64,000 bases of DNA from Pseudomonadales bacterium (GTDB taxonomy: Bacteria; Pseudomonadota; Gammaproteobacteria; Pseudomonadales; IMCC2047), in contig OZ246007.1 in assembly GCA_965230515.1 (NCBI GenBank), forward strand, positions 23,196 to 87,195, given 5' to 3'. The notes under the pieces are model-generated. The model did no database searches, was not told the origin of the DNA, and saw only the letters and a program-made list of their open reading frames with translations. Below, piece after piece: positions 1 to 20,679 of the stretch (positions are counted from its first letter, which is position 1; each line of letters starts with the position of its first letter). Both the position numbers and the translations under genes were made by a program.

Positions 1-738
1 GGGTGCAGTTGCGACATTGTCGTAGTCCATCGGCGTCATAATGACGATCACGGATTTTGGCTCAAAAGGGAAGTCTTTGTCCCAGTACAGCTCCCGTTCA
101 TGGATGATGTCGTACATGGGGTCGTAAACAAACCGCTTGTCAAAGCGGGTGATGCCGCAGCGTACAGCGCCAAACAGTTTTGCAGCACTTCGAATCATGG
201 TGGCGGCGCGCTTGGGGGAACCGAAGTCATATTGTTCGGCCTCTACATCGGATTGGTCCCAACTATGCAGCGGAGTGTTGGGCTGGGTGAACGCCTGTGG
301 CCTTGATTTCGCGGCAATTAGCGGAAACCATGCGGCATGGCCCAAAGCACGATCCGCCTGGTCGTAGCCTTCCCGTGTATTATCCGGCGGGAGCTTGTGT
401 TCAAAAGTTTGAATGTCGTAATTGAAATTAAACGTTTTATTGTGCAAACGGGCATACTGTATATTTCTTTCCGGATAGACCTCCTGGGACAATTTGGGGC
501 TGACCGCATAGCACAGCACAACGTCGCGCTGGTCCTTTGGCTTGAAGGTTTCATCAGTTTCAATGCCCTCGGATGGCGAACCGTCCAAAGAAGCTTTGGA
601 CGCTGCCAGCGTTGCTCCGCCGGCAGCCATTACACCTGCTCCGGCCAAAGCCGCTCGTTTAAAGAAGCTTCTGCGGGAGATGTTGGGTAGATCATCCAGG
701 GGCTTAACGGGAATTTGATTGTTATCCTGGTCGCTCAT
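1..738 (-). CDS. rdhA: Reductive dehalogenase catalytic subunit (RdhA-like), Tat-exported; N-terminal 246 aa only, runs off the window
   Basis: Hand translation from ATG at 738 is open to base 1: MSDQDNNQIPVKPLDDLPNISRRSFFKRAALAGAGVMAAGG... It has a twin-arginine signal, then EGYDQADRALGHAAW, IRSAAKLFGAVRCGITRFDKRFVY and FPFEPKSVIVIMTPMDY, which resemble RdhA conserved blocks. RBS GAGAGGAAG. The Fe-S motifs would lie outside the window. Confidence 0.82.
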   Translation of the reverse strand, partial: MSDQDNNQIPVKPLDDLPNISRRSFFKRAALAGAGVMAAGGATLAASKASLDGSPSEGIETDETFKPKDQRDVVLCYAVSPKLSQEVYPERNIQYARLHNKTFNFNYDIQTFEHKLPPDNTREGYDQADRALGHAAWFPLIAAKSRPQAFTQPNTPLHSWDQSDVEAEQYDFGSPKRAATMIRSAAKLFGAVRCGITRFDKRFVYDPMYDIIHERELYWDKDFPFEPKSVIVIMTPMDYDNVATAP

Positions 739-819
739 GGTGAATTCTTCCTCTCAATAATGACAACTTGTTATTCAATACCGGCTTGTGATGTGGTACC
801 GGTCTGATCCGGTGTTGGT

Positions 820-2280: not shown

Positions 2281-3735
2281 TTAGGGATTATGGTTATGCC
2301 GAGAGATCCCCAGTTTTTTCATGCGTGATTCAAGAGTGGTGGGTTTCAATCCTAGCAATCGGGCGGCACCTTTTGGGCCGCTTACCCGCCAGGAGGTTTG
2401 TTCCAGGGCTTTCAGTATGTGCTGTGACTCTGAGTCCGCTAGCGTCAAAATACCGGAATTTCCTTCGTCTGACTGCTGTTGAATAAACCATTCCCCGAGT
2501 TCAAGTTTATCGTTACTGCTGATGATAAGCGCGCGTTCGATGATGTTTTCAAGCTCTCTGACATTACCTGGCCAGTGATAGCTAACAAGGGCGTCAAAAG
2601 ATTTTTGAGGAATGGTCGCTACCCGTTTTCCCAATCGGGCACCAAGCTTGTCGACAAAATGCTGTACAAGTAAGGGGATATCTTCGCGTCTGTCTCGCAG
2701 TGCCGGTGAATAGATAGGAAACACGTTCAGGCGGTAGTAAAGATCTTCCCGGAATTTGCCCTCTCTAATCAGCTCCTTAAGATCATGGTTGGTGGCTGCG
2801 AGTACGCGCACATTCACCTTTAAGGTTTCGGAGCTTCCCACACGTTCTAACTCTCCCTCCTGCAGTACTCGAAGTAGCTTTGCCTGGAGGTCGAGAGGCA
2901 GGTCACCTATTTCATCGAGAAACAGGGTGCCCTGGTGGGCCAGCTCAAATCGTCCGGTTTTGCGAGCCATAGCTCCAGTAAAAGCACCTTTTTCATGGCC
3001 AAACAGTTCGCTTTCGATCAAATTGGATGGAAGCGCAGCACAGTTTACTTTGACCAAAGGTTTATCCGAACGCTGACTATGGCTATGAATGGCGCGGGCA
3101 ACCAGCTCTTTTCCTGTCCCCGTTTCTCCCAGTATCAGCACTGTGGTATCGGTATTGGCGACCTGTTCGATCTGTTGCAACATATATTTGAAAGGTCGGC
3201 TGGTGCCCACCATTCCACTGTTGCCCTGTTCAACCCGGATCTCTTCCTTTAGATAATGATTTTCCTTTTCCAGTTTTTCCTTTAATTCATTAAGTTCACC
3301 CAGTGCGGTTTGCAGGGCATGCTGGGTTTCTTTAATTTCCGTAATATCCCGAGCCTCAGGAACCAGAAACTGTACTTTTTGGTTCTCGTTTAACAAGGGA
3401 TTGAGCGAAAAGTCAAAAGATCGACGCTTCCCGTGGGTATCGGTGTGCTCGGTTTCAAACCGCACAAATACGCCGGTGTTTGCTTTTTCGATCGCTTTAA
3501 TTATCTGTTCCTGAATCGTTGTAGAGTGGTTCCACCATGGTGTGTCCCAAAAGAACTTGCCTAGCACCTCTTCTTCAGAAACGCCGATCATTTCCAGTGC
3601 AGTTTCATTAACCATTAACAAACGGCCATCGGTATCCAGTAGCCCGGTAAGCTGAAAGTGGTGATTGAATATCGCATTCAGTAAATCAGGGTTATTCGGA
3701 TCGATCTGGGTAAGAGATTTATTGGTTTTGGTCAT
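2281..3735 (-). CDS. PAS-domain sigma54-dependent transcriptional activator (FhlA-like AAA+ and HTH)
   Basis: N-terminal PAS ([10 protein letters not shown]), [41 protein letters not shown]-terminal HTH. Confidence 0.95.
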
Positions 3736-3972: not shown

Positions 3973-4818
3973 TCAATTCCGTTCCCCAAAAGCCTGCGAG
4001 TGATGCGCGATATGCTCACCTATAAAGCTGGCAATAAAAAAATAACTGTGGTCATAGCCGGACTGAATTCTCAGTTCGAATGGATGATTCGCTTCGCGAC
4101 AGGCATCTGCCAGTCGTTCCGGCTTTAACTGTTCATCCAGAAACCCGTCCTGGTCGCCCTGGTCGATCAGAATAGGCAGGCGTTCTTTGGCGGATTTGAT
4201 CAGCGCGCAACTGTCGTATTGAGCCCATTGCTGCCGGTCGTTGCCAAGATAATGGCTGAGCGCTTTTTCACCCCAGGGGCAGTTCATCGGAGAGCAGATC
4301 GGCGCAAAGGCTGATACAGCTTTATAGCGTCCGGGATTTTTAAGTGCCATGGTGATGGCACCGTGGCCACCCATCGAGTGGCCCATCATCGATTGCCGGG
4401 ATGCATCCAGCGGGAGCTGCTTGAATATCAGCTCGGGAAGTTCCTCGCAGATATAGTCGTACATCTGATAGTTTTTTCGCCAGGGTTCCTGTGTCGCGTT
4501 AACATAGAATCCTGCTCCTATGCCAAAATCCCATTCATCATCGGGATCATCCGGAATGGCTTCTCCTCTGGGGCTGGTGTCTGCGGCGATCATGGCCACG
4601 CCGTGCTCACTGGCGTAGCGCTGCGCGCCCGCTTTTTGTACGAAGTTCTCGTCGGAGCAGGTCAGCCCCGAGAGCCAGAATATTGCCGGTACCGGTTTCT
4701 GCTCCGCGAGAGGTGGTAGATAAACGGAAAAATTCATCTCGCAGTTCAGACTGCCGGAGTGGTGCTGGTAGCGTTGCTGATGGCCGCCAAAGCATCGAAT
4801 GTCGCTGATCTTTTGCAT
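3973..4818 (-). CDS. fghA: S-formylglutathione hydrolase
   Basis: WLSGLTC, GHSMGGHGA, GYDHSYFFIASFI; adjacent to frmA. Confidence 0.96.
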   Translation of the reverse strand: MQKISDIRCFGGHQQRYQHHSGSLNCEMNFSVYLPPLAEQKPVPAIFWLSGLTCSDENFVQKAGAQRYASEHGVAMIAADTSPRGEAIPDDPDDEWDFGIGAGFYVNATQEPWRKNYQMYDYICEELPELIFKQLPLDASRQSMMGHSMGGHGAITMALKNPGRYKAVSAFAPICSPMNCPWGEKALSHYLGNDRQQWAQYDSCALIKSAKERLPILIDQGDQDGFLDEQLKPERLADACREANHPFELRIQSGYDHSYFFIASFIGEHIAHHSQAFGERN

Positions 4819-4830
4819 CTTTTTCGGATC

Positions 4831-5937
4831 CTAGTAAAGCACAACTGAACGAATGCTTTTGCCTGCATGCATCAGCTCGAATGCCGTATTAATCTCTTCC
4901 AGTGGCATGGTATGGGTAATCAGGTCGTCAATATTAATTTTATTATCCATATACCAGTCGACGATCTTTGGAACGTCGGTTCGGCCACGCGCACCACCAA
5001 ATGCTGTGCCGCGCCAGACTCTGCCGGTTACCAGTTGAAATGGGCGCGTGGAGATCTCCTGTCCGGCACCAGCGACGCCGATAATATAGGATTCCCCCCA
5101 GCCCTTGTGGCAGCACTCCAATGCCTGCCGCATGGTGTTGACGTTGCCGATGCATTCAAAGCTGTAATCCGCACCGCCGCCGGTCAGTTCGACGATCGAA
5201 GACACAATATCTTCCACCTCTTTAGGGTTGATGAAATCGGTCATACCAAACTGTCGAGCCAGTGGAACTTTGGATTCGTTCAGGTCAATACCCACGATTT
5301 TATTGGCGCCGGCCAGTCTTGCGCCCTGAATGACATTGAGTCCGATTCCGCCGAGACCAAAGACGACCACATTTGATCCTGGCTCTACTTTGGCATCAAA
5401 TACTACCGCACCCACTCCGGTTGTGACGCCGCAGCCAATGTAGCAGACTTTGTCGAATGGCGCGTCCTGGCGGATTTTTGCTAATGCTATCTCGGGTAAT
5501 ACGGTGTAGTTGGAAAAGGTGGAGCAACCCATGTAGTGCAAAATAGGTTTTCCATCCAACGAATATCGACTGGAGCCATCAGGCATCAGCCCGGCACCCT
5601 GAGTTTCGCGAATGGCCTGGCACAGATTGGTTTTCGGGTGAAGGCAGAAATCACACTCCCGACACTCCGGTGTATAAAGGGGAATCACGTGGTCGCCTGG
5701 CTTGAGTGAGGTCACGCCTGGGCCTACTTCCTGCACGATTCCGGCACCCTCATGGCCCAATATTGCCGGAAAGGCACCCTCCGGATCATCGCCCGAAAGG
5801 GTAAAAGCATCAGTGTGACAGACCCCTGTTGCCTTAATTTCGACCAATACTTCACCGGCTTTGGGGCCTTCGAGATCCACTTCTACAATTTCTAAAGGTT
5901 TGCCCGCCTCAAAGGCAACGGCTGCTCTTGTTTTCAT
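4831..5937 (-). CDS. frmA: S-(hydroxymethyl)glutathione dehydrogenase / class III alcohol dehydrogenase
   Basis: [49 protein letters not shown]. Confidence 0.97.
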
Positions 5938-6080
5938 GGTTATGCTCCAGTGTGTTGTTGGTTAATCGCTAGCCTATGTTTGGAAGGTGATGCCTGTTAA
6001 ATACTACATTGTTTTTTCTTGAGTTATAAACAGTATAAATGCAACATATTGTTCTTTTTGTGCAACAAAGGGTTTGGTCG

Positions 6081-6950
6081 ATGAGTAAATGGGATCAGTA
6101 TGAAGCCTTCGTTAAAGTGGTCGAACATAAGGGATTCTCTGCCGCCGCGGACAAAATGGAGGTGTCCAAGTCCTATATCAGCCGCCAGATATCAGGCCTT
6201 GAAAACCGGCTTGGCGCGCAACTGCTCAACCGCACTACACGTAAGGTAACACTGACGGAGCTTGGTGGCAGTTTTTACAGCCATTGTAAAGATCTGCTCG
6301 GAAATCTGGAATTTGCCGAACAGGCAGTGATGGACATGCAGGCACGTCCCATCGGGACGTTGCGCATCACCGCTGTTGGCGTTTTTGCGGAGGATTATGT
6401 GGTTCCGGTAGCAATCGAGTATATGAAAGCATATCCGGATATTCGAGTGGATATAGATTTTTCTGACCGGGCTATCGATCTTGTTGCCGAGGGCTTTGAT
6501 CTGGCAATCCGTTCGGGTGTGCTGCCTGATTCCAGTCTGAAAGCGCGTAAAATAGTGCCTCGAAATCTAAAAATCTGTGCCAGTCCGCATTACCTTTCCG
6601 AGCACGGTATACCCGGACGAATATCTGATCTTCATCAGCATAACTGCCTGGTGGGTTCAAATACCACCTGGCGAATAAAAGATGACGAACATCATTATGA
6701 CTTTAAGGTTGAGGGTAGCTGGCGCTCCAATAACGGAAGGGCTCTGAAACGCGCGGCATTGAGTGGATTGGGAATCGTCCAATTGCCGGAGCTTTACTTA
6801 AGAGATGATATAGAAGCAGGACGTTTACGTTCTATTTTGGATAAATATAATCCTGTAGACCCAATGTATTGGGCGGTTTACCCTTATAATCGTCACCTGG
6901 CAACCAAAGTCAGGTTGTTTATCGATCTGCTGGTGAATCGTCTGACCTAG
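6081..6950 (+). CDS. LysR-family regulator, divergent from frmA
   Basis: FSAAA..S.ISRQISGLENRLGAQLLNRTTRKV HTH; CrgA-like effector domain; start placed at ATG 6081. Confidence 0.93.
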   Translation: MSKWDQYEAFVKVVEHKGFSAAADKMEVSKSYISRQISGLENRLGAQLLNRTTRKVTLTELGGSFYSHCKDLLGNLEFAEQAVMDMQARPIGTLRITAVGVFAEDYVVPVAIEYMKAYPDIRVDIDFSDRAIDLVAEGFDLAIRSGVLPDSSLKARKIVPRNLKICASPHYLSEHGIPGRISDLHQHNCLVGSNTTWRIKDDEHHYDFKVEGSWRSNNGRALKRAALSGLGIVQLPELYLRDDIEAGRLRSILDKYNPVDPMYWAVYPYNRHLATKVRLFIDLLVNRLT

Positions 6951-7022: not shown

Positions 7023-7080
7023 ACTGTTTAAAAATTGCTGCCAATATTGAATAGTGCGCGGGTTTTGGCTGTGTTCAAAT
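7023..7080 (+). promoter_or_regulatory. Operator/promoter copy 1 of a motif shared across the catabolic cluster
   Basis: ACTGTttaaAAATTGCTGCCAATATTGAATAGTGC, then a 17-bp spacer and TCAAAT; matches the copies at 9434 and 14723. Confidence 0.6.
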
Positions 7081-7085
7081 GCGCA

Positions 7086-7169
7086 CCAGATTTAAAGTCT
7101 TCCTCCTGTTGTGCCTGGCACAACAATAAGCGCCGATATGGCCAGGCCCTTTTGAAGGGCCTTTTTTTT
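7086..7169 (+). ncRNA. Candidate small RNA (or terminated leader)
   Basis: Promoter motif directly upstream; CU-rich UCUUCCUCC tract; inverted repeat at 7107-7125; intrinsic terminator at 7144-7169; no credible ORF. Confidence 0.5.
7144..7169 (+). terminator. Rho-independent terminator
   Basis: AGGCCCTT-ttg-AAGGGCCT followed by a T run. Confidence 0.85.
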
Positions 7170-7297
7170 ATTCTTTAATTGCCATTAAGATTGCCTAAAC
7201 AGAATATTTTCTACCTTAACTGAATATCTACGGTCGGCGCCCCGCTTATATACTCTTTTAACAGCTTTCATGGCGGTTGAATATATAGGGAGGGACC

Positions 7298-7807
7298 ATG
7301 AAACGACGTTTTTTTGTTACCAATCTGAGCCGATTGAGTGTTGCAATAACTATTGCACCATGGCGTGTCTTGGCAAATTCGCCCAGTGTTAATGGGTCAA
7401 ATTCTAATTCCGCATCGCTGCAAGTCAGAGCCATGTTCGCGGAATTGGCCTACCTGCTGTTGCCGTTACAACCGGCTGACTCTGAAATCTACCAAATTGT
7501 GGCTGAGCATCTGATGCGGCAGATGGTTGCCCGGCCTGCTACTCATAAGTTACTTAGTAATGGTCTTGATCAGTTAAACCAAAGTGCTGAGCGTGGTTGG
7601 TTATCGGTATCTCGTGCTGAACGAAAAGTCGTGATGGTTAGGTTTATAGAGTTGCCTTATATCGCAATCGTGCGCTGGGTGACGCATGAACAGGTGCTGC
7701 GCAATCGGCACGTTTGGGCGCAAGTGGGGTATCAGGGCTCGGCTATTGAGAAGGGTGGTTATTTAAAGCGCGGATTTAATGATATTGATTGGCTGCCGGT
7801 GCGTTGA
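7298..7807 (+). CDS. Tat-signal small subunit of a GMC dehydrogenase (gluconate 2-dehydrogenase subunit 3-like)
   Basis: MKRRFF signal; C-terminal VW..VGYQGSAIEKGGYL.RGFNDIDWLP; directly upstream of the GMC gene. Confidence 0.8.
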   Translation: MKRRFFVTNLSRLSVAITIAPWRVLANSPSVNGSNSNSASLQVRAMFAELAYLLLPLQPADSEIYQIVAEHLMRQMVARPATHKLLSNGLDQLNQSAERGWLSVSRAERKVVMVRFIELPYIAIVRWVTHEQVLRNRHVWAQVGYQGSAIEKGGYLKRGFNDIDWLPVR

Positions 7808-7814
7808 GAGGTGA

Positions 7815-9377
7815 ATGGTAATGACGAAATTTGATCGGGATGATGACTCTGTCGTAGTAGTGATAGGTTCCGGGGCGGGAGGAGGAACCCTGTCCAATGA
7901 ATTAGCCCAGCGAGGCATCAAGGTTGTATGCCTGGAGGCGGGCAAGCGGCTCAAAGCGAGCGAAATTATTAATGATGAAGCGGTGATGTATGAGAGGTTG
8001 ACCTGGTTTGATAGACGCAAGGGTACAGGGGATGCGTCCGCCCAGTTTCCGGTCTGGACCTGTAAAACAGTCGGTGGAACAACCATGCACTGGACGGCAT
8101 CCTGCCCCCGTATGCAGGAGCATGAATTCCGTGCCCGGTCTACCTATGGCGAAATCGGAAATACCAATCTGGTTGATTGGCCGTTGAGTTACGATGAACT
8201 GGCACCCTATTACAGTCAGGCCGAGAACAGGTTGGGGGTAACCGGTACGCATGGGATTGAGCGTCTGCCGGGCAATAACAACTACAAAGTACTCGAAGCC
8301 GGAGCACGGGCCTTGGGCTACCGGCAGATTGATACCAATAATGTTGCTATCAATTCCCAGACACGGGATGGCAGACCGTCCTGTATGCAGCTCGGGTTTT
8401 GCACCAGTGGTTGTGTTGTTCGGGCAAAATGGTCAACGCTTTACACTGAGATTGAAGCGGCTGAAAAAACAGGCCATTTTGAACTGAGACCGGAATCCAT
8501 GGCGGTGCGTATAAACCATACCCCGGAAGGTCGCGTCAACAGTGTCCAGTATCGGGATGCATCAGGCCAGATGCAGACTCAAAAGGCGCGGCTGGTATGC
8601 GTGGCAGGAAATGCAGTGGAGACAGTACGTTTGCTGCTAAACTCCCGTTCTTCAATGTTTCCTGAAGGTTTGGCAAACTCAAGTGACCAGGTTGGCAGGA
8701 ATTACATGCGCCATTTTACGTTGCCTGTTATAGGCATTATGCCGGGCCCGGTCAATATGCACCGGGGCACGCATCAGGCGGGGATTGTAAAAGACGAGAG
8801 ACACCATGATTCTGATCGAGGTTTCAGTGGAGGGTTCTTGTTCCTGACAGTACCCTTTACACCTGAGATCGTCGGAAAAATCATCCTTCGTGATAAGTGG
8901 GGCGACGAGCTGGCCGGTATACTGAATCGTTATGATCATATGGCGGCTATGCTCGTGCATGGCGAGGATATGCCGCAATCCACCAACCGCATTACCTTGC
9001 ATGCTTCAGAAAAAGATGAAAATGGACTGCCGGTCCCCGTTATTCACTATAGGGATCACCCTAATACCAAAAAAATGAAGCATTATGCAAAGGAAAGGGG
9101 GGTTGCCATCTACCGGGCGTTGGGTGCCCGGGAAATATTTTCACCCGATGATGTGTTTCCGGCAACGCACAACATGGGCGTTGCCCGGATTGGCTTGGAT
9201 CCGCGAGAGTCGGTTTGTAATGCCTGGGGCCAGACCCATGATATTTCCAACCTGTTTGTATCTGATGGTAGCCTTTTGCCGACTGTTGGCTGTGAAAACC
9301 CGACCTTGACCATTGTCGCGCTGATTTTGCGCCAGGCTGATTATATTGAACAGCAGATGTTAAAGGGCGTACTATAA
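7815..9377 (+). CDS. GMC-family FAD oxidoreductase
   Basis: VIGSGAGGG FAD motif, KTVGGTTMHW, C.QLGFC..GC, HNMG, NLFVSDGS, ENPTLTI. Confidence 0.93.
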   Translation: MVMTKFDRDDDSVVVVIGSGAGGGTLSNELAQRGIKVVCLEAGKRLKASEIINDEAVMYERLTWFDRRKGTGDASAQFPVWTCKTVGGTTMHWTASCPRMQEHEFRARSTYGEIGNTNLVDWPLSYDELAPYYSQAENRLGVTGTHGIERLPGNNNYKVLEAGARALGYRQIDTNNVAINSQTRDGRPSCMQLGFCTSGCVVRAKWSTLYTEIEAAEKTGHFELRPESMAVRINHTPEGRVNSVQYRDASGQMQTQKARLVCVAGNAVETVRLLLNSRSSMFPEGLANSSDQVGRNYMRHFTLPVIGIMPGPVNMHRGTHQAGIVKDERHHDSDRGFSGGFLFLTVPFTPEIVGKIILRDKWGDELAGILNRYDHMAAMLVHGEDMPQSTNRITLHASEKDENGLPVPVIHYRDHPNTKKMKHYAKERGVAIYRALGAREIFSPDDVFPATHNMGVARIGLDPRESVCNAWGQTHDISNLFVSDGSLLPTVGCENPTLTIVALILRQADYIEQQMLKGVL

Positions 9378-9433: not shown

Positions 9434-9491
9434 GCTGTGTCGAAATCGCTGCCATTTTGCAATAGATGCCAGGTTCCGTATCAGGTCTAAT
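9434..9491 (+). promoter_or_regulatory. Operator/promoter copy 2
   Basis: GCTGTgtcgAAATCGCTGCCATTTTGCAATAGATG, then a 17-bp spacer and TCTAAT; 27/35 identical to the copy at 14723. Confidence 0.7.
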
Positions 9492-14722: not shown

Positions 14723-14780
14723 GCTGTACACAAATCGCTGCCATTATGGGATAGACGTATTTCTACCTTTGCTTTTAAAT
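14723..14780 (+). promoter_or_regulatory. Operator/promoter copy 3
   Basis: GCTGTacacAAATCGCTGCCATTATGGGATAGACG, then a 17-bp spacer and TTAAAT; contains a TGCC-N6-GGATA XylS/BenR-like half-site. Confidence 0.7.
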
Positions 14781-14905
14781 GTCCTTGATGGGTTAGTCGT
14801 GCCGTTTGCAAATGACAAAAAGGGCTGTGAATATCAGCCGGTTTTATTTTTCGGACCTCCGGGTCTTTATCGATGAGCAGAATTATAATATAGGAGGCTA
14901 TTTCA

Positions 14906-19647: not shown

Positions 19648-20679
19648 ATGGAATATCCCCATTTCACAGTTACCGGGCAAAACCGTTCTGGGCGCTCGCT
19701 GTTCAGCTCAAATCCGTTGCAGAGCCGGATGCTTTGCAAGACGGATGATATTGATGAGTTAAGTCAGCATATCGGGCATGTACTCTTGCCCCACCATTGC
19801 AAGGTCTTAAGCAGTTCCAAAGGGGCGCATCGAGCGGTGTTCCATCACGCACCATTGTCCGATATTTCTGTTAACTACCTGCGTTATGGTGCAGAGGCGA
19901 GTGTCGACGTTGATCAATTGGGTTTCTTCCTGATTGAGGTTCCTGTATCCGGAGTATCAGAGACCTGGTATGGGAATGCGAAGGTGATTACCAATGCCGG
20001 TTCCGGTGTCGTTGCCAGCCCCTACCAGAAGTTTTCAACGCGCTGGAATGCTGAGTGCTCAAAATTACTGATTAAAATTAATCGATTGGCATTGGAACGC
20101 TACCTGAGCAAAATGCTGGGTTGTGATCTGCAAAAGCCATTGGATTTTGAGGTGGGTTTGGATCTCTTTTCACCGGAGAGTGCATCGCTCTGGCACATGG
20201 TGCAATGGTTGGTAGCCGAGCTTGAGAACGATCAGTCGCTACTGAATAATGCGCCTTTAGGTTACACGCAATATGAACAGATGTTGATGTGGGTGTTGCT
20301 CAATGCTCAACCGAATAATTATTCCACTGAACTGGCTTCGCGTACACCGGTTGCTGCGCCGCATTATGTGCATCGGGTGGAGGAGTATATAGACGCGCAC
20401 TGTGCCGAACCAATTACTTTAACGCAGTTGGTTGATATTTCGAGTGTTAGTGGCAGAACCCTGCTTGAAGGATTTAAAAAGCATAAAGGAACTTCGCCGA
20501 TGAAATATCTAAAGGCGGTTCGCATGGAGCGGGTTCACATAGACTTGAAGCAGTCCGAAGCGACAAATAGAAACGTTACTGAGATTGCGCTTGCCTGGGG
20601 CTTTACACAATTAGGTAAGTTTTCCGTAGAGTATAAGCAAAAATTTGGTGAATCCCCTTCCGATACACTAAAAAAATAA
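19648..20679 (+). CDS. AraC/XylS-family regulator
   Basis: N-terminal ligand domain; SGRTL.EGFK..KGTSPM.YL..VR; VTEIALAWGF.QLG.FS..YK..FGESPSDTL. Confidence 0.94.
   Translation: MEYPHFTVTGQNRSGRSLFSSNPLQSRMLCKTDDIDELSQHIGHVLLPHHCKVLSSSKGAHRAVFHHAPLSDISVNYLRYGAEASVDVDQLGFFLIEVPVSGVSETWYGNAKVITNAGSGVVASPYQKFSTRWNAECSKLLIKINRLALERYLSKMLGCDLQKPLDFEVGLDLFSPESASLWHMVQWLVAELENDQSLLNNAPLGYTQYEQMLMWVLLNAQPNNYSTELASRTPVAAPHYVHRVEEYIDAHCAEPITLTQLVDISSVSGRTLLEGFKKHKGTSPMKYLKAVRMERVHIDLKQSEATNRNVTEIALAWGFTQLGKFSVEYKQKFGESPSDTLKK

Follow-up and report, generated by a model that had tools for sequence, protein, structure and literature searches.

A conserved intergenic unit behind a cluster-specific promoter motif is a candidate genus-restricted small RNA gene in a Pseudomonadales bacterium

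What does a promoter motif of a catabolic gene cluster drive where no conserved gene follows it? In the 64,000-nt stretch of DNA analysed here (the window), which belongs to the 3.58-Mb genome of a Pseudomonadales bacterium (G000), a gap of 347 nt separates a LysR-family gene (6039-6950, + strand) from a two-gene GMC-oxidoreductase operon (7298-9377, + strand). Read from 5' to 3', this gap contains a promoter/operator motif that we call P1, about 85 nt without a conserved open reading frame, an intrinsic terminator and a second promoter-like region, P2. The preliminary description of this DNA had proposed either a substrate-induced small RNA (sRNA) of the Hfq type or an attenuated leader. Four other genomes of the same genus (G001, G002, G003 and G004) are used for comparison throughout. 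The features to which we refer are the following.

7023-7055, + strand: P1, 33-nt promoter/operator motif, with the core AAATTGCTGCCAATATTGAATAG at 7032-7054
7061-7169, + strand: predicted non-coding transcript of about 109 nt, its start placed from P1 and its end from the terminator
7068-7080, + strand: conserved 5' block GCTGTGTTCAAAT, from the multi-genome alignments (GCTCTGGTCAAAT in G002)
7098-7106, + strand: CU-rich, anti-Shine-Dalgarno-like tract TCTTCCTCC
7098-7114, + strand: invariant 17-mer TCTTCCTCCTGTTGTGC, the candidate seed, whose 3' half is the 5' arm of hairpin 1
7107-7125, + strand: hairpin 1, perfect 9-1-9 inverted repeat TGTTGTGCC-T-GGCACAACA, arms of 8-9 bp
7120-7129, + strand: A-rich motif ACAACAATAA
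7079-7129, + strand: 16-codon open reading frame, ATG at 7079 to TAA at 7127-7129, translation MRTRFKVFLLLCLAQQ
7144-7169, + strand: intrinsic terminator, stem 7144-7151 / 7155-7162, loop TTG, T-run to 7169
7192-7254, + strand: P2, promoter-like region of the GMC operon, direct repeats at 7192-7206 and 7212-7226, TATACT at 7249-7254
7298-9377, + strand: GMC operon, 169-aa subunit and GMC oxidoreductase, always adjoining the element
9434-9466, + strand: P1 copy 2, 47 nt upstream of a 3-hydroxyacyl-CoA-dehydrogenase-like gene (ATG 9513)
14723-14755, + strand: P1 copy 3, 150 nt upstream of an aldehyde dehydrogenase gene (ATG 14906)
19648-20679, + strand: AraC-family regulator gene (AraC_binding_2 and HTH_18)

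The CU-rich tract, the palindrome, the motif ACAACAATAA, the terminator, both repeats and TATACT lie exactly where the preliminary description had placed them. Its estimate of an RNA of about 85 nt is too short. With a start about 6-8 nt past AATAGT (7050-7055), the RNA would comprise about 105-110 nt including the terminator, and the G002 version of the predicted transcript has a length of about 130 nt.

The operator/promoter that had been described as shared with the catabolic genes is a real repeat family with the three copies listed above. The window contains three matches to its 17-nt core where 0.35 would be expected; none of 100 shuffled sequences reached three. Exactly three copies exist in the 3.58-Mb genome, all in forward orientation and all in this cluster, while a reversed control pattern gave none. 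All three are intergenic and stand ahead of + strand units. Searching with a 23-nt P1 pattern, we find exactly three perfect copies each in G000, G001, G002 and G003, at orthologous positions and with orthologous spacing. Elsewhere in the order, 4 of 397 other genomes contain the pattern, each as a single match with one mismatch, and the controls gave no match. Within P1, TTTAAA (7027-7032) may serve as a -35-like and AATAGT (7050-7055) as a -10-like hexamer; they match sigma-70 at 8 of 12 positions, and a scan with the sigma-70 consensus did not list them. It is the position and the orientation of the motif that suggest promoter function. We regard P1 as probably a cluster-specific, activator-dependent promoter.

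Each P1 copy (7032, 9443 and 14732) has its own variant of the motif, for example TTGCTGCCAAT compared to TCGCTGCCATT. As each variant is kept across four species, a copy-specific tuning of affinity or strength is suggested. Downstream of copy 3, a leader of 150 nt (14756-14905) precedes the aldehyde dehydrogenase gene. Within it, a short hairpin, GGCTG-TGAATAT-CAGCC, is followed by the T-rich tail GGTTTTATTTTT, and the whole could be another regulated leader.

The cluster comprises nine genes and is syntenic in G000, G001 and G002. Its order is small subunit, GMC oxidoreductase, 3HCDH-like gene, TonB receptor, FAD-linked oxidase, ALDH, TPP decarboxylase-like gene, MFS transporter and AraC. 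No regulator gene other than that of the AraC family is syntenic with the cluster in these three genomes, which makes the AraC-family product a candidate binder of P1 or P2. The cluster thereby combines two unrelated operator types, P1 and P2, with a single syntenic regulator gene. The small subunit, a 169-aa protein encoded by the first gene of the operon (7298-7807), has a twin-arginine-like N-terminus (MKRRFF...) and belongs to no Pfam or NCBIfam family. With 46-54% identity, compared to 77-84% for its GMC partner, it evolves far faster than the latter.

The terminator could in principle do nothing but stop read-through from the LysR gene. The comparison of the gene neighbourhoods rules this out. 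Upstream of the element we find LysR in G000 and G001, a divergent class-III ADH with no LysR gene in between in G003, and a UPF0176/rhodanese gene in G002. Wherever the element occurs, P2 and the GMC operon follow downstream, and the element directly adjoins the operon in all four genomes that contain it and in both metagenome homologues. With the upstream gene varying while the GMC operon stays, the terminator is not simply a LysR terminator. In G003, judged from the gene order, the + strand terminator has nothing but the predicted P1 transcript to end. Beyond the gap, the region 3973-6950 carries a formaldehyde-detoxification pair on the minus strand, an S-(hydroxymethyl)glutathione dehydrogenase (645 bits) and an S-formylglutathione hydrolase (425 bits), and beside it the divergent LysR gene, which is YafC-like. 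G003 lacks the LysR gene at this place, and in G002 the neighbour is a different one.

The preliminary description had also seen a separate promoter-like element that could serve the GMC operon. This holds as well: P2 is conserved in four genomes despite indels of 10-22 nt just upstream, between the terminator and P2, and a 29-nt P2 pattern (CAGAATAT...CTGAATATC) occurs once in the genome. In the reading that we favour, the transcript would end at the terminator, 80 nt before the P2 region. P2 is built from two 15-nt direct repeats 20 nt apart, of which the proximal one ends about 20 nt before TATACT and abuts the -35 position of this -10 element. By analogy, such spacing resembles that of activator-dependent promoters. 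The GMC operon thus probably has its own promoter, and with a conserved and unique P2 between terminator and operon, it would not need P1.

The same arrangement can be read in a different way. The GMC operon could have P1 as a promoter further upstream and the RNA of about 110 nt as its 5' leader, so that conditional read-through of the terminator, brought about by a protein or by antitermination of another sort, would add to transcription from P2. We consider a cis-acting leader or attenuator of this kind unlikely, if worth keeping in view. The constant linkage of the element to the GMC operon, whatever stands upstream, fits such a function, and the succession of promoter, leader, terminator and operon is the classic order of an attenuator. 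In G000, the CU tract can moreover pair with the ribosome-binding site of the operon (AGGGAGGGA) at -15.3 kcal/mol. This pairing with the ribosome-binding site of the first gene weakens to -9.9 in G001 and to -10.9 in G002 and is therefore not conserved, and the conserved, unique P2, whose activity we presume from its sequence, lies between terminator and operon. No antiterminator was found when the G000 RNA was folded without the 3' arm of the terminator: the helix that forms instead has only 2-3 nt in common with the 5' arm and takes another register in G002, and no alternative structure in this fold comparison competes with the terminator. Besides the terminator there is one simple hairpin, too little for a known aptamer, and no Rfam match. 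Among the open reading frames of the cluster, Pfam finds no antiterminator protein gene. The leader open reading frame lacks both conservation and a Shine-Dalgarno sequence. Taken together, the attenuated-leader alternative is weakened.

A terminator for LysR read-through only was one of two findings that the preliminary description had named as arguments against its proposal; the other, a lack of conservation at homologous loci, is refuted as well. A DNA query of 421 nt was compared with 41 related genomes, five of which matched, G000 included. G001 matches with 81% identity over 355 nt, G003 with 82% over 218 aligned columns (206 query nt), and G002 with 82% over 72 nt from the CU tract to the terminator, together with a separate match to P1. 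The remaining match, in G026, covers 30 nt of the spacer and is at chance level. The fifth genome of the genus, G004, which is 83% complete, showed neither the element nor a small-subunit gene, nor a copy of P1 without mismatch. The element is thus conserved at homologous loci in three of the four other genomes of the genus and on two metagenome contigs.

The known sequences come from four related marine-type species and one metagenome variant only, three of them very similar to each other. Our alignment comprises G000, G001, G003, G002 and the metagenome variant L020. It resolves into blocks: an invariant P1 core, the 5' block, a linker that varies and is 20 nt longer in G002, the invariant 17-mer, the hairpin, the terminator, and the P2 repeats with TATACT. 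Both the 17-mer TCTTCCTCCTGTTGTGC, which is identical throughout, and the terminator are conserved in all five aligned sequences. The neutral background was taken from the four-fold degenerate sites of the adjacent GMC gene, at which G000 is 36% identical to G001 and 34% to G002; it is near saturation. Protein identity of the 169-aa subunit to G000 is 54% in G001, 52-53% in G003 and 46-47% in G002. Long invariant non-coding runs next to four-fold sites that are near saturation argue for purifying selection on the non-coding blocks, and judged from these sequences the non-coding unit is under strong purifying selection. Between G000 and G001, the four-fold sites of the LysR gene (6039-6950) are 59% identical and those of the GMC gene (7815-9377), 900 nt away, 36%. 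These two segments seem to differ in their history or in the constraint on their codons.

Outside the genus, we could not find any homologue by pattern scans of genomes and metagenomes or by a covariance model over 151 genomes. The metagenome pattern scan returned 17 loci. Two of them are true homologues (L020 and L022), and the other 15 are chance matches with neither P1 nor terminator nor P2. An exact-core scan with one genome per species gave two loci only, both on contigs of metagenome-assembled genomes already known from the genus. Among 151 genomes of the order, the covariance model of the RNA found strong matches only in G000 and G002, with one copy per genome; three further matches (E 0.04-0.06, 29-31 bits) were judged to be chance. 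Upstream of eight distant homologues or paralogues of the small subunit, the model found nothing. Two DNA matches, L006 and L005, were likewise attributed to chance, one consisting of 22 nt within a coding-looking region and the other of 30 nt to the spacer. Close orthologues of the small subunit occur, among 401 genomes, within the same genus only. The element is single-copy, confined to one genus and co-distributed with the cluster.

The predicted transcript of G000 folds with a minimum free energy of -37.5 kcal/mol (z -3.3), and 1 of 200 shuffled sequences folds as well; the G002 version has z -2.5. The terminator consists of an 8-bp stem with five G-C pairs at -12.6 kcal/mol, followed by seven U. 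In the predicted folds UCCUCC is unpaired, so that the candidate seed is, in these models, both accessible and conserved. The perfect 9-1-9 palindrome pointed out in the preliminary description is indeed present at 7107-7125. Its occurrence by itself does not exceed chance: the window contains five perfect palindromes with 9-nt arms, and 30 block shuffles gave a mean of 1.9 and a maximum of five. For the palindrome it is conservation that counts and not occurrence. Eight pairs of hairpin 1 are kept in all five sequences, and the only change is from U-A to U-G in two of them.

The RNAalifold consensus consists of hairpin 1, a 3-bp helix and the terminator. For the 19 pairs of these three helices, 93.7% of the alignment cells can pair, compared to 32-56% when the partners are slid. 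The 3-bp 5' helix contains one "compensatory" pair and was dismissed as too short. A long-range helix between the 5' and 3' parts of the G000 fold does not keep its register in G002 and was also set aside. Covariation lends the structure no proof: we count no compensatory change in the 19 pairs, the changes that occur being of the U-A to U-G type, in a set of five sequences and two sequence types that has almost no power. The modelled structure is compatible with the data, and with no compensatory change in 19 pairs selection could have kept the sequence as DNA just as well as RNA.

This leads to the possibility that the function lies in the DNA itself. In that case, a regulator of P2 or P1 would bind the palindrome with its flanks, the copy of P1 found here would be one more operator, and the terminator would do no more than shield the GMC operon from upstream transcription. 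Perfect palindromes are typical of operators, the changes in the helix are one-sided without compensation, and the half-site TTGTGCC bears a resemblance, though no more than that, to TTGCTGCC in P1. A + strand gene lies upstream in G000, G001 and G002, whose read-through the terminator could stop. Other observations speak against this. The invariant block includes 9 nt on the 5' side of the palindrome (TCTTCCTCC), and another block further 5' is conserved as well. In G003 and G002 the top of the palindrome decays (C-A and A-A) in the manner of a hairpin loop, where operator half-sites would be expected to stay symmetric. G003 retains an intact terminator with no + strand gene upstream, and the TGGCAC within the palindrome is not a sigma-54 promoter. 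On balance we find a function at the DNA level quite unlikely.

Sigma-54 promoters are defined by GG and GC elements at fixed spacing. At TGGCAC (7116-7121), GG and GC stand one base too far apart, and neither G003 (TAGCAC) nor G002 (TAGCGC) retains the GG. A gene for a PAS-domain sigma-54 activator lies nearby (2281-3735, - strand), and no conserved sigma-54 promoter was seen in the intergenic region studied.

The unit also contains the 16-codon open reading frame, which could encode a hydrophobic micro-peptide or a leader peptide. G000, G001 and G003 keep it open in the same frame. Yet no Shine-Dalgarno sequence precedes the ATG, and four of the five differences between G000 and G001 within the frame are non-synonymous. 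Both G002 and L020 have ATA instead of ATG, an insertion of 20 nt and no stop codon at that place. Conservation of the nucleotides and not of the frame argues against translation, and the open reading frame is probably not functional. We regard a small protein as the product of this locus as extremely improbable.

Read on the minus strand, AGGAGGAAGA would be a Shine-Dalgarno sequence; this reading was discarded, as it offers no start codon at a usable distance. There is no T-run after the hairpin on the minus strand. A search of the whole window against Rfam gave no match at gathering scores. With a permissive limit (E up to 10), the best matches were Atu_C8 with 19.4 bits and AniS with 19.1 bits against a cut-off of 50. 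These sub-threshold matches are driven by the terminator and stay at or below 20 bits, with cut-offs of 41-70.

We consider that the stretch 7023-7169 is a P1-driven gene for a genus-restricted non-coding RNA of about 110 nt, which probably acts in trans via its CU-rich seed, and assign this reading a probability of roughly 0.55. Its sequence features, its uniqueness, its synteny and the strong purifying selection on it are observed. Transcription would start at P1, the motif that also precedes two catabolic transcription units of the cluster, and would end at the strong intrinsic terminator ahead of P2 of the GMC-oxidoreductase operon. The resulting RNA would present the invariant CU-rich tract (UCUUCCUCCUGUUGUGC), running into the conserved hairpin, followed by the A-rich stretch and the terminator hairpin with its U-tail. 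Such a layout would be that of a base-pairing sRNA of the Hfq type. Upon induction of the cluster, the RNA would be made together with the catabolic genes. Its seed may then pair with the purine-rich ribosome-binding region of at least one mRNA elsewhere and change the translation or stability of this target. P1 activity and transcription, co-induction, dependence on Hfq, action in trans and targets are what we infer from the sequence.

An hfq gene is present in the genome (103 bits), and ProQ was not found there. To look for targets, the seed region was scanned for duplexes with 3148 crudely defined gene starts across the genome, with six shuffled seeds as control. The best duplex energy is -29.3, and the best duplexes of the shuffled seeds range from -25.7 to -28.9. 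At or below -16 kcal/mol we find 851 genes, compared to 303-665 for the shuffled seeds. Such a surplus of moderate duplexes is as expected for any sequence that resembles an anti-Shine-Dalgarno. Perfect complementary runs of at least 10 nt occur at 62 sites, one of which is the locus itself and one of which lies near a predicted start; the shuffled seeds have 10-127 such sites, 0-5 of them near starts. Among the mRNAs of the cluster itself, that of AraC included, neither the seed nor the 5' block finds a conserved pairing in G000, G001 and G002. In the start-region, perfect-run and cluster-mRNA scans, no target stands above the shuffled-seed controls or is conserved in relatives. Two sites (G001:C17:49020 and 49846) were dropped because their strands are inconsistent relative to the genes.

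The preliminary description had noted an 8-mer complementary to the ribosome-binding site GAGGAAGA at 746-753 (- strand) of a gene called rdhA. The match is real, and it is of the Shine-Dalgarno type and no better than many others. The gene label itself fails, as the open reading frame 1-738 (- strand) belongs to no Pfam and no NCBIfam family. Elsewhere in the genome, a membrane-protein gene contains a perfect 15-nt complement of the seed in its final codons; the start of the gene that follows is about 75 nt further on. The membrane-protein gene is part of a 6.9-kb segment that is present twice (G000:C1 near 1,640,172 and 2,910,799) with 99.7% identity. The complement is only partly kept in relatives, and at the level of sequence it stays a lead.

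The lack of a single outstanding target, together with the 851 genes at or below -16 kcal/mol, would also fit a broader mode of action. The RNA could be an inducible mimic of the 16S rRNA anti-Shine-Dalgarno, in which the invariant UCUUCCUCC would occupy strong ribosome-binding sites of the GGAGG type across many mRNAs. The substrate of the cluster, via a pathway-specific activator and the RNA, would then bring about a broad translational reprogramming instead of acting on one or two dedicated targets. We rate this as very unlikely.

Of the two options offered in the preliminary description, a substrate-induced Hfq-type sRNA or an attenuated leader, neither is fully borne out: the unit is conserved and probably independent, and neither covariation nor a convincing target was found in the alignment and scans described above. 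How does a dedicated sRNA of this kind compare to known systems? In Gammaproteobacteria, Hfq-dependent trans-acting sRNAs are intergenic units of about 100 nt with a regulated promoter, a single-stranded seed, a hairpin, a U-tailed terminator and an A-rich stretch. The candidate is likewise intergenic and of about this length, with a hairpin, a U-tailed terminator and an A-rich stretch; its conserved seed is predicted to be single-stranded and its promoter is a putative one. AACAAUAAG fits the A-R-N triplet pattern, and the hfq gene is there. The candidate differs in that it matches no Rfam family and is confined to a single genus.

MicL and DapZ are sRNAs that have their own promoter inside a 3' UTR. 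Similarly, the unit in G000, G001 and G002 follows just after a + strand gene with which it shares the terminator, so that it would double as the 3' end of the mRNA of this gene. Unlike in MicL and DapZ, the upstream gene is not conserved and lies on the other strand in G003; the link is to the downstream operon.

ToxT is a regulator of the AraC family. The promoter of the sRNA TarB of Vibrio cholerae is directly controlled by ToxT (PMC3136459). This sRNA promoter carries the regulator-binding motif of the structural genes of the regulon and lies within the same gene island. P1 of our candidate would be a comparable case, with a regulon that is in contrast catabolic and has three sites in all. 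RssR (STnc2160) of Salmonella is an sRNA encoded in the myo-inositol degradation island and tied to the regulation of this pathway: it stabilises the mRNA of the island activator ReiD and is activated by SsrB (PMC6288124). The candidate resembles RssR in that it would be an sRNA gene inside a catabolic gene island; it differs in that no conserved pairing to the AraC mRNA or to any mRNA of the cluster was found, and there is no sequence similarity.

The RNA would thus be a new family of an already known kind, where newness is claimed as absence from Rfam. General concepts are left unchanged by it, since sRNA genes in catabolic or virulence islands under the control of the island regulator are already known. 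If the RNA is real, it would bring post-transcriptional control to a small regulon that is specific to one pathway and has three P1 sites. The bacteria belong to a little-studied group of gammaproteobacteria, from which Rfam lists no sRNAs. A single-copy unit with an invariant 17-nt seed, behind a promoter motif that it has in common with two other transcription units only, would make a clean test case.
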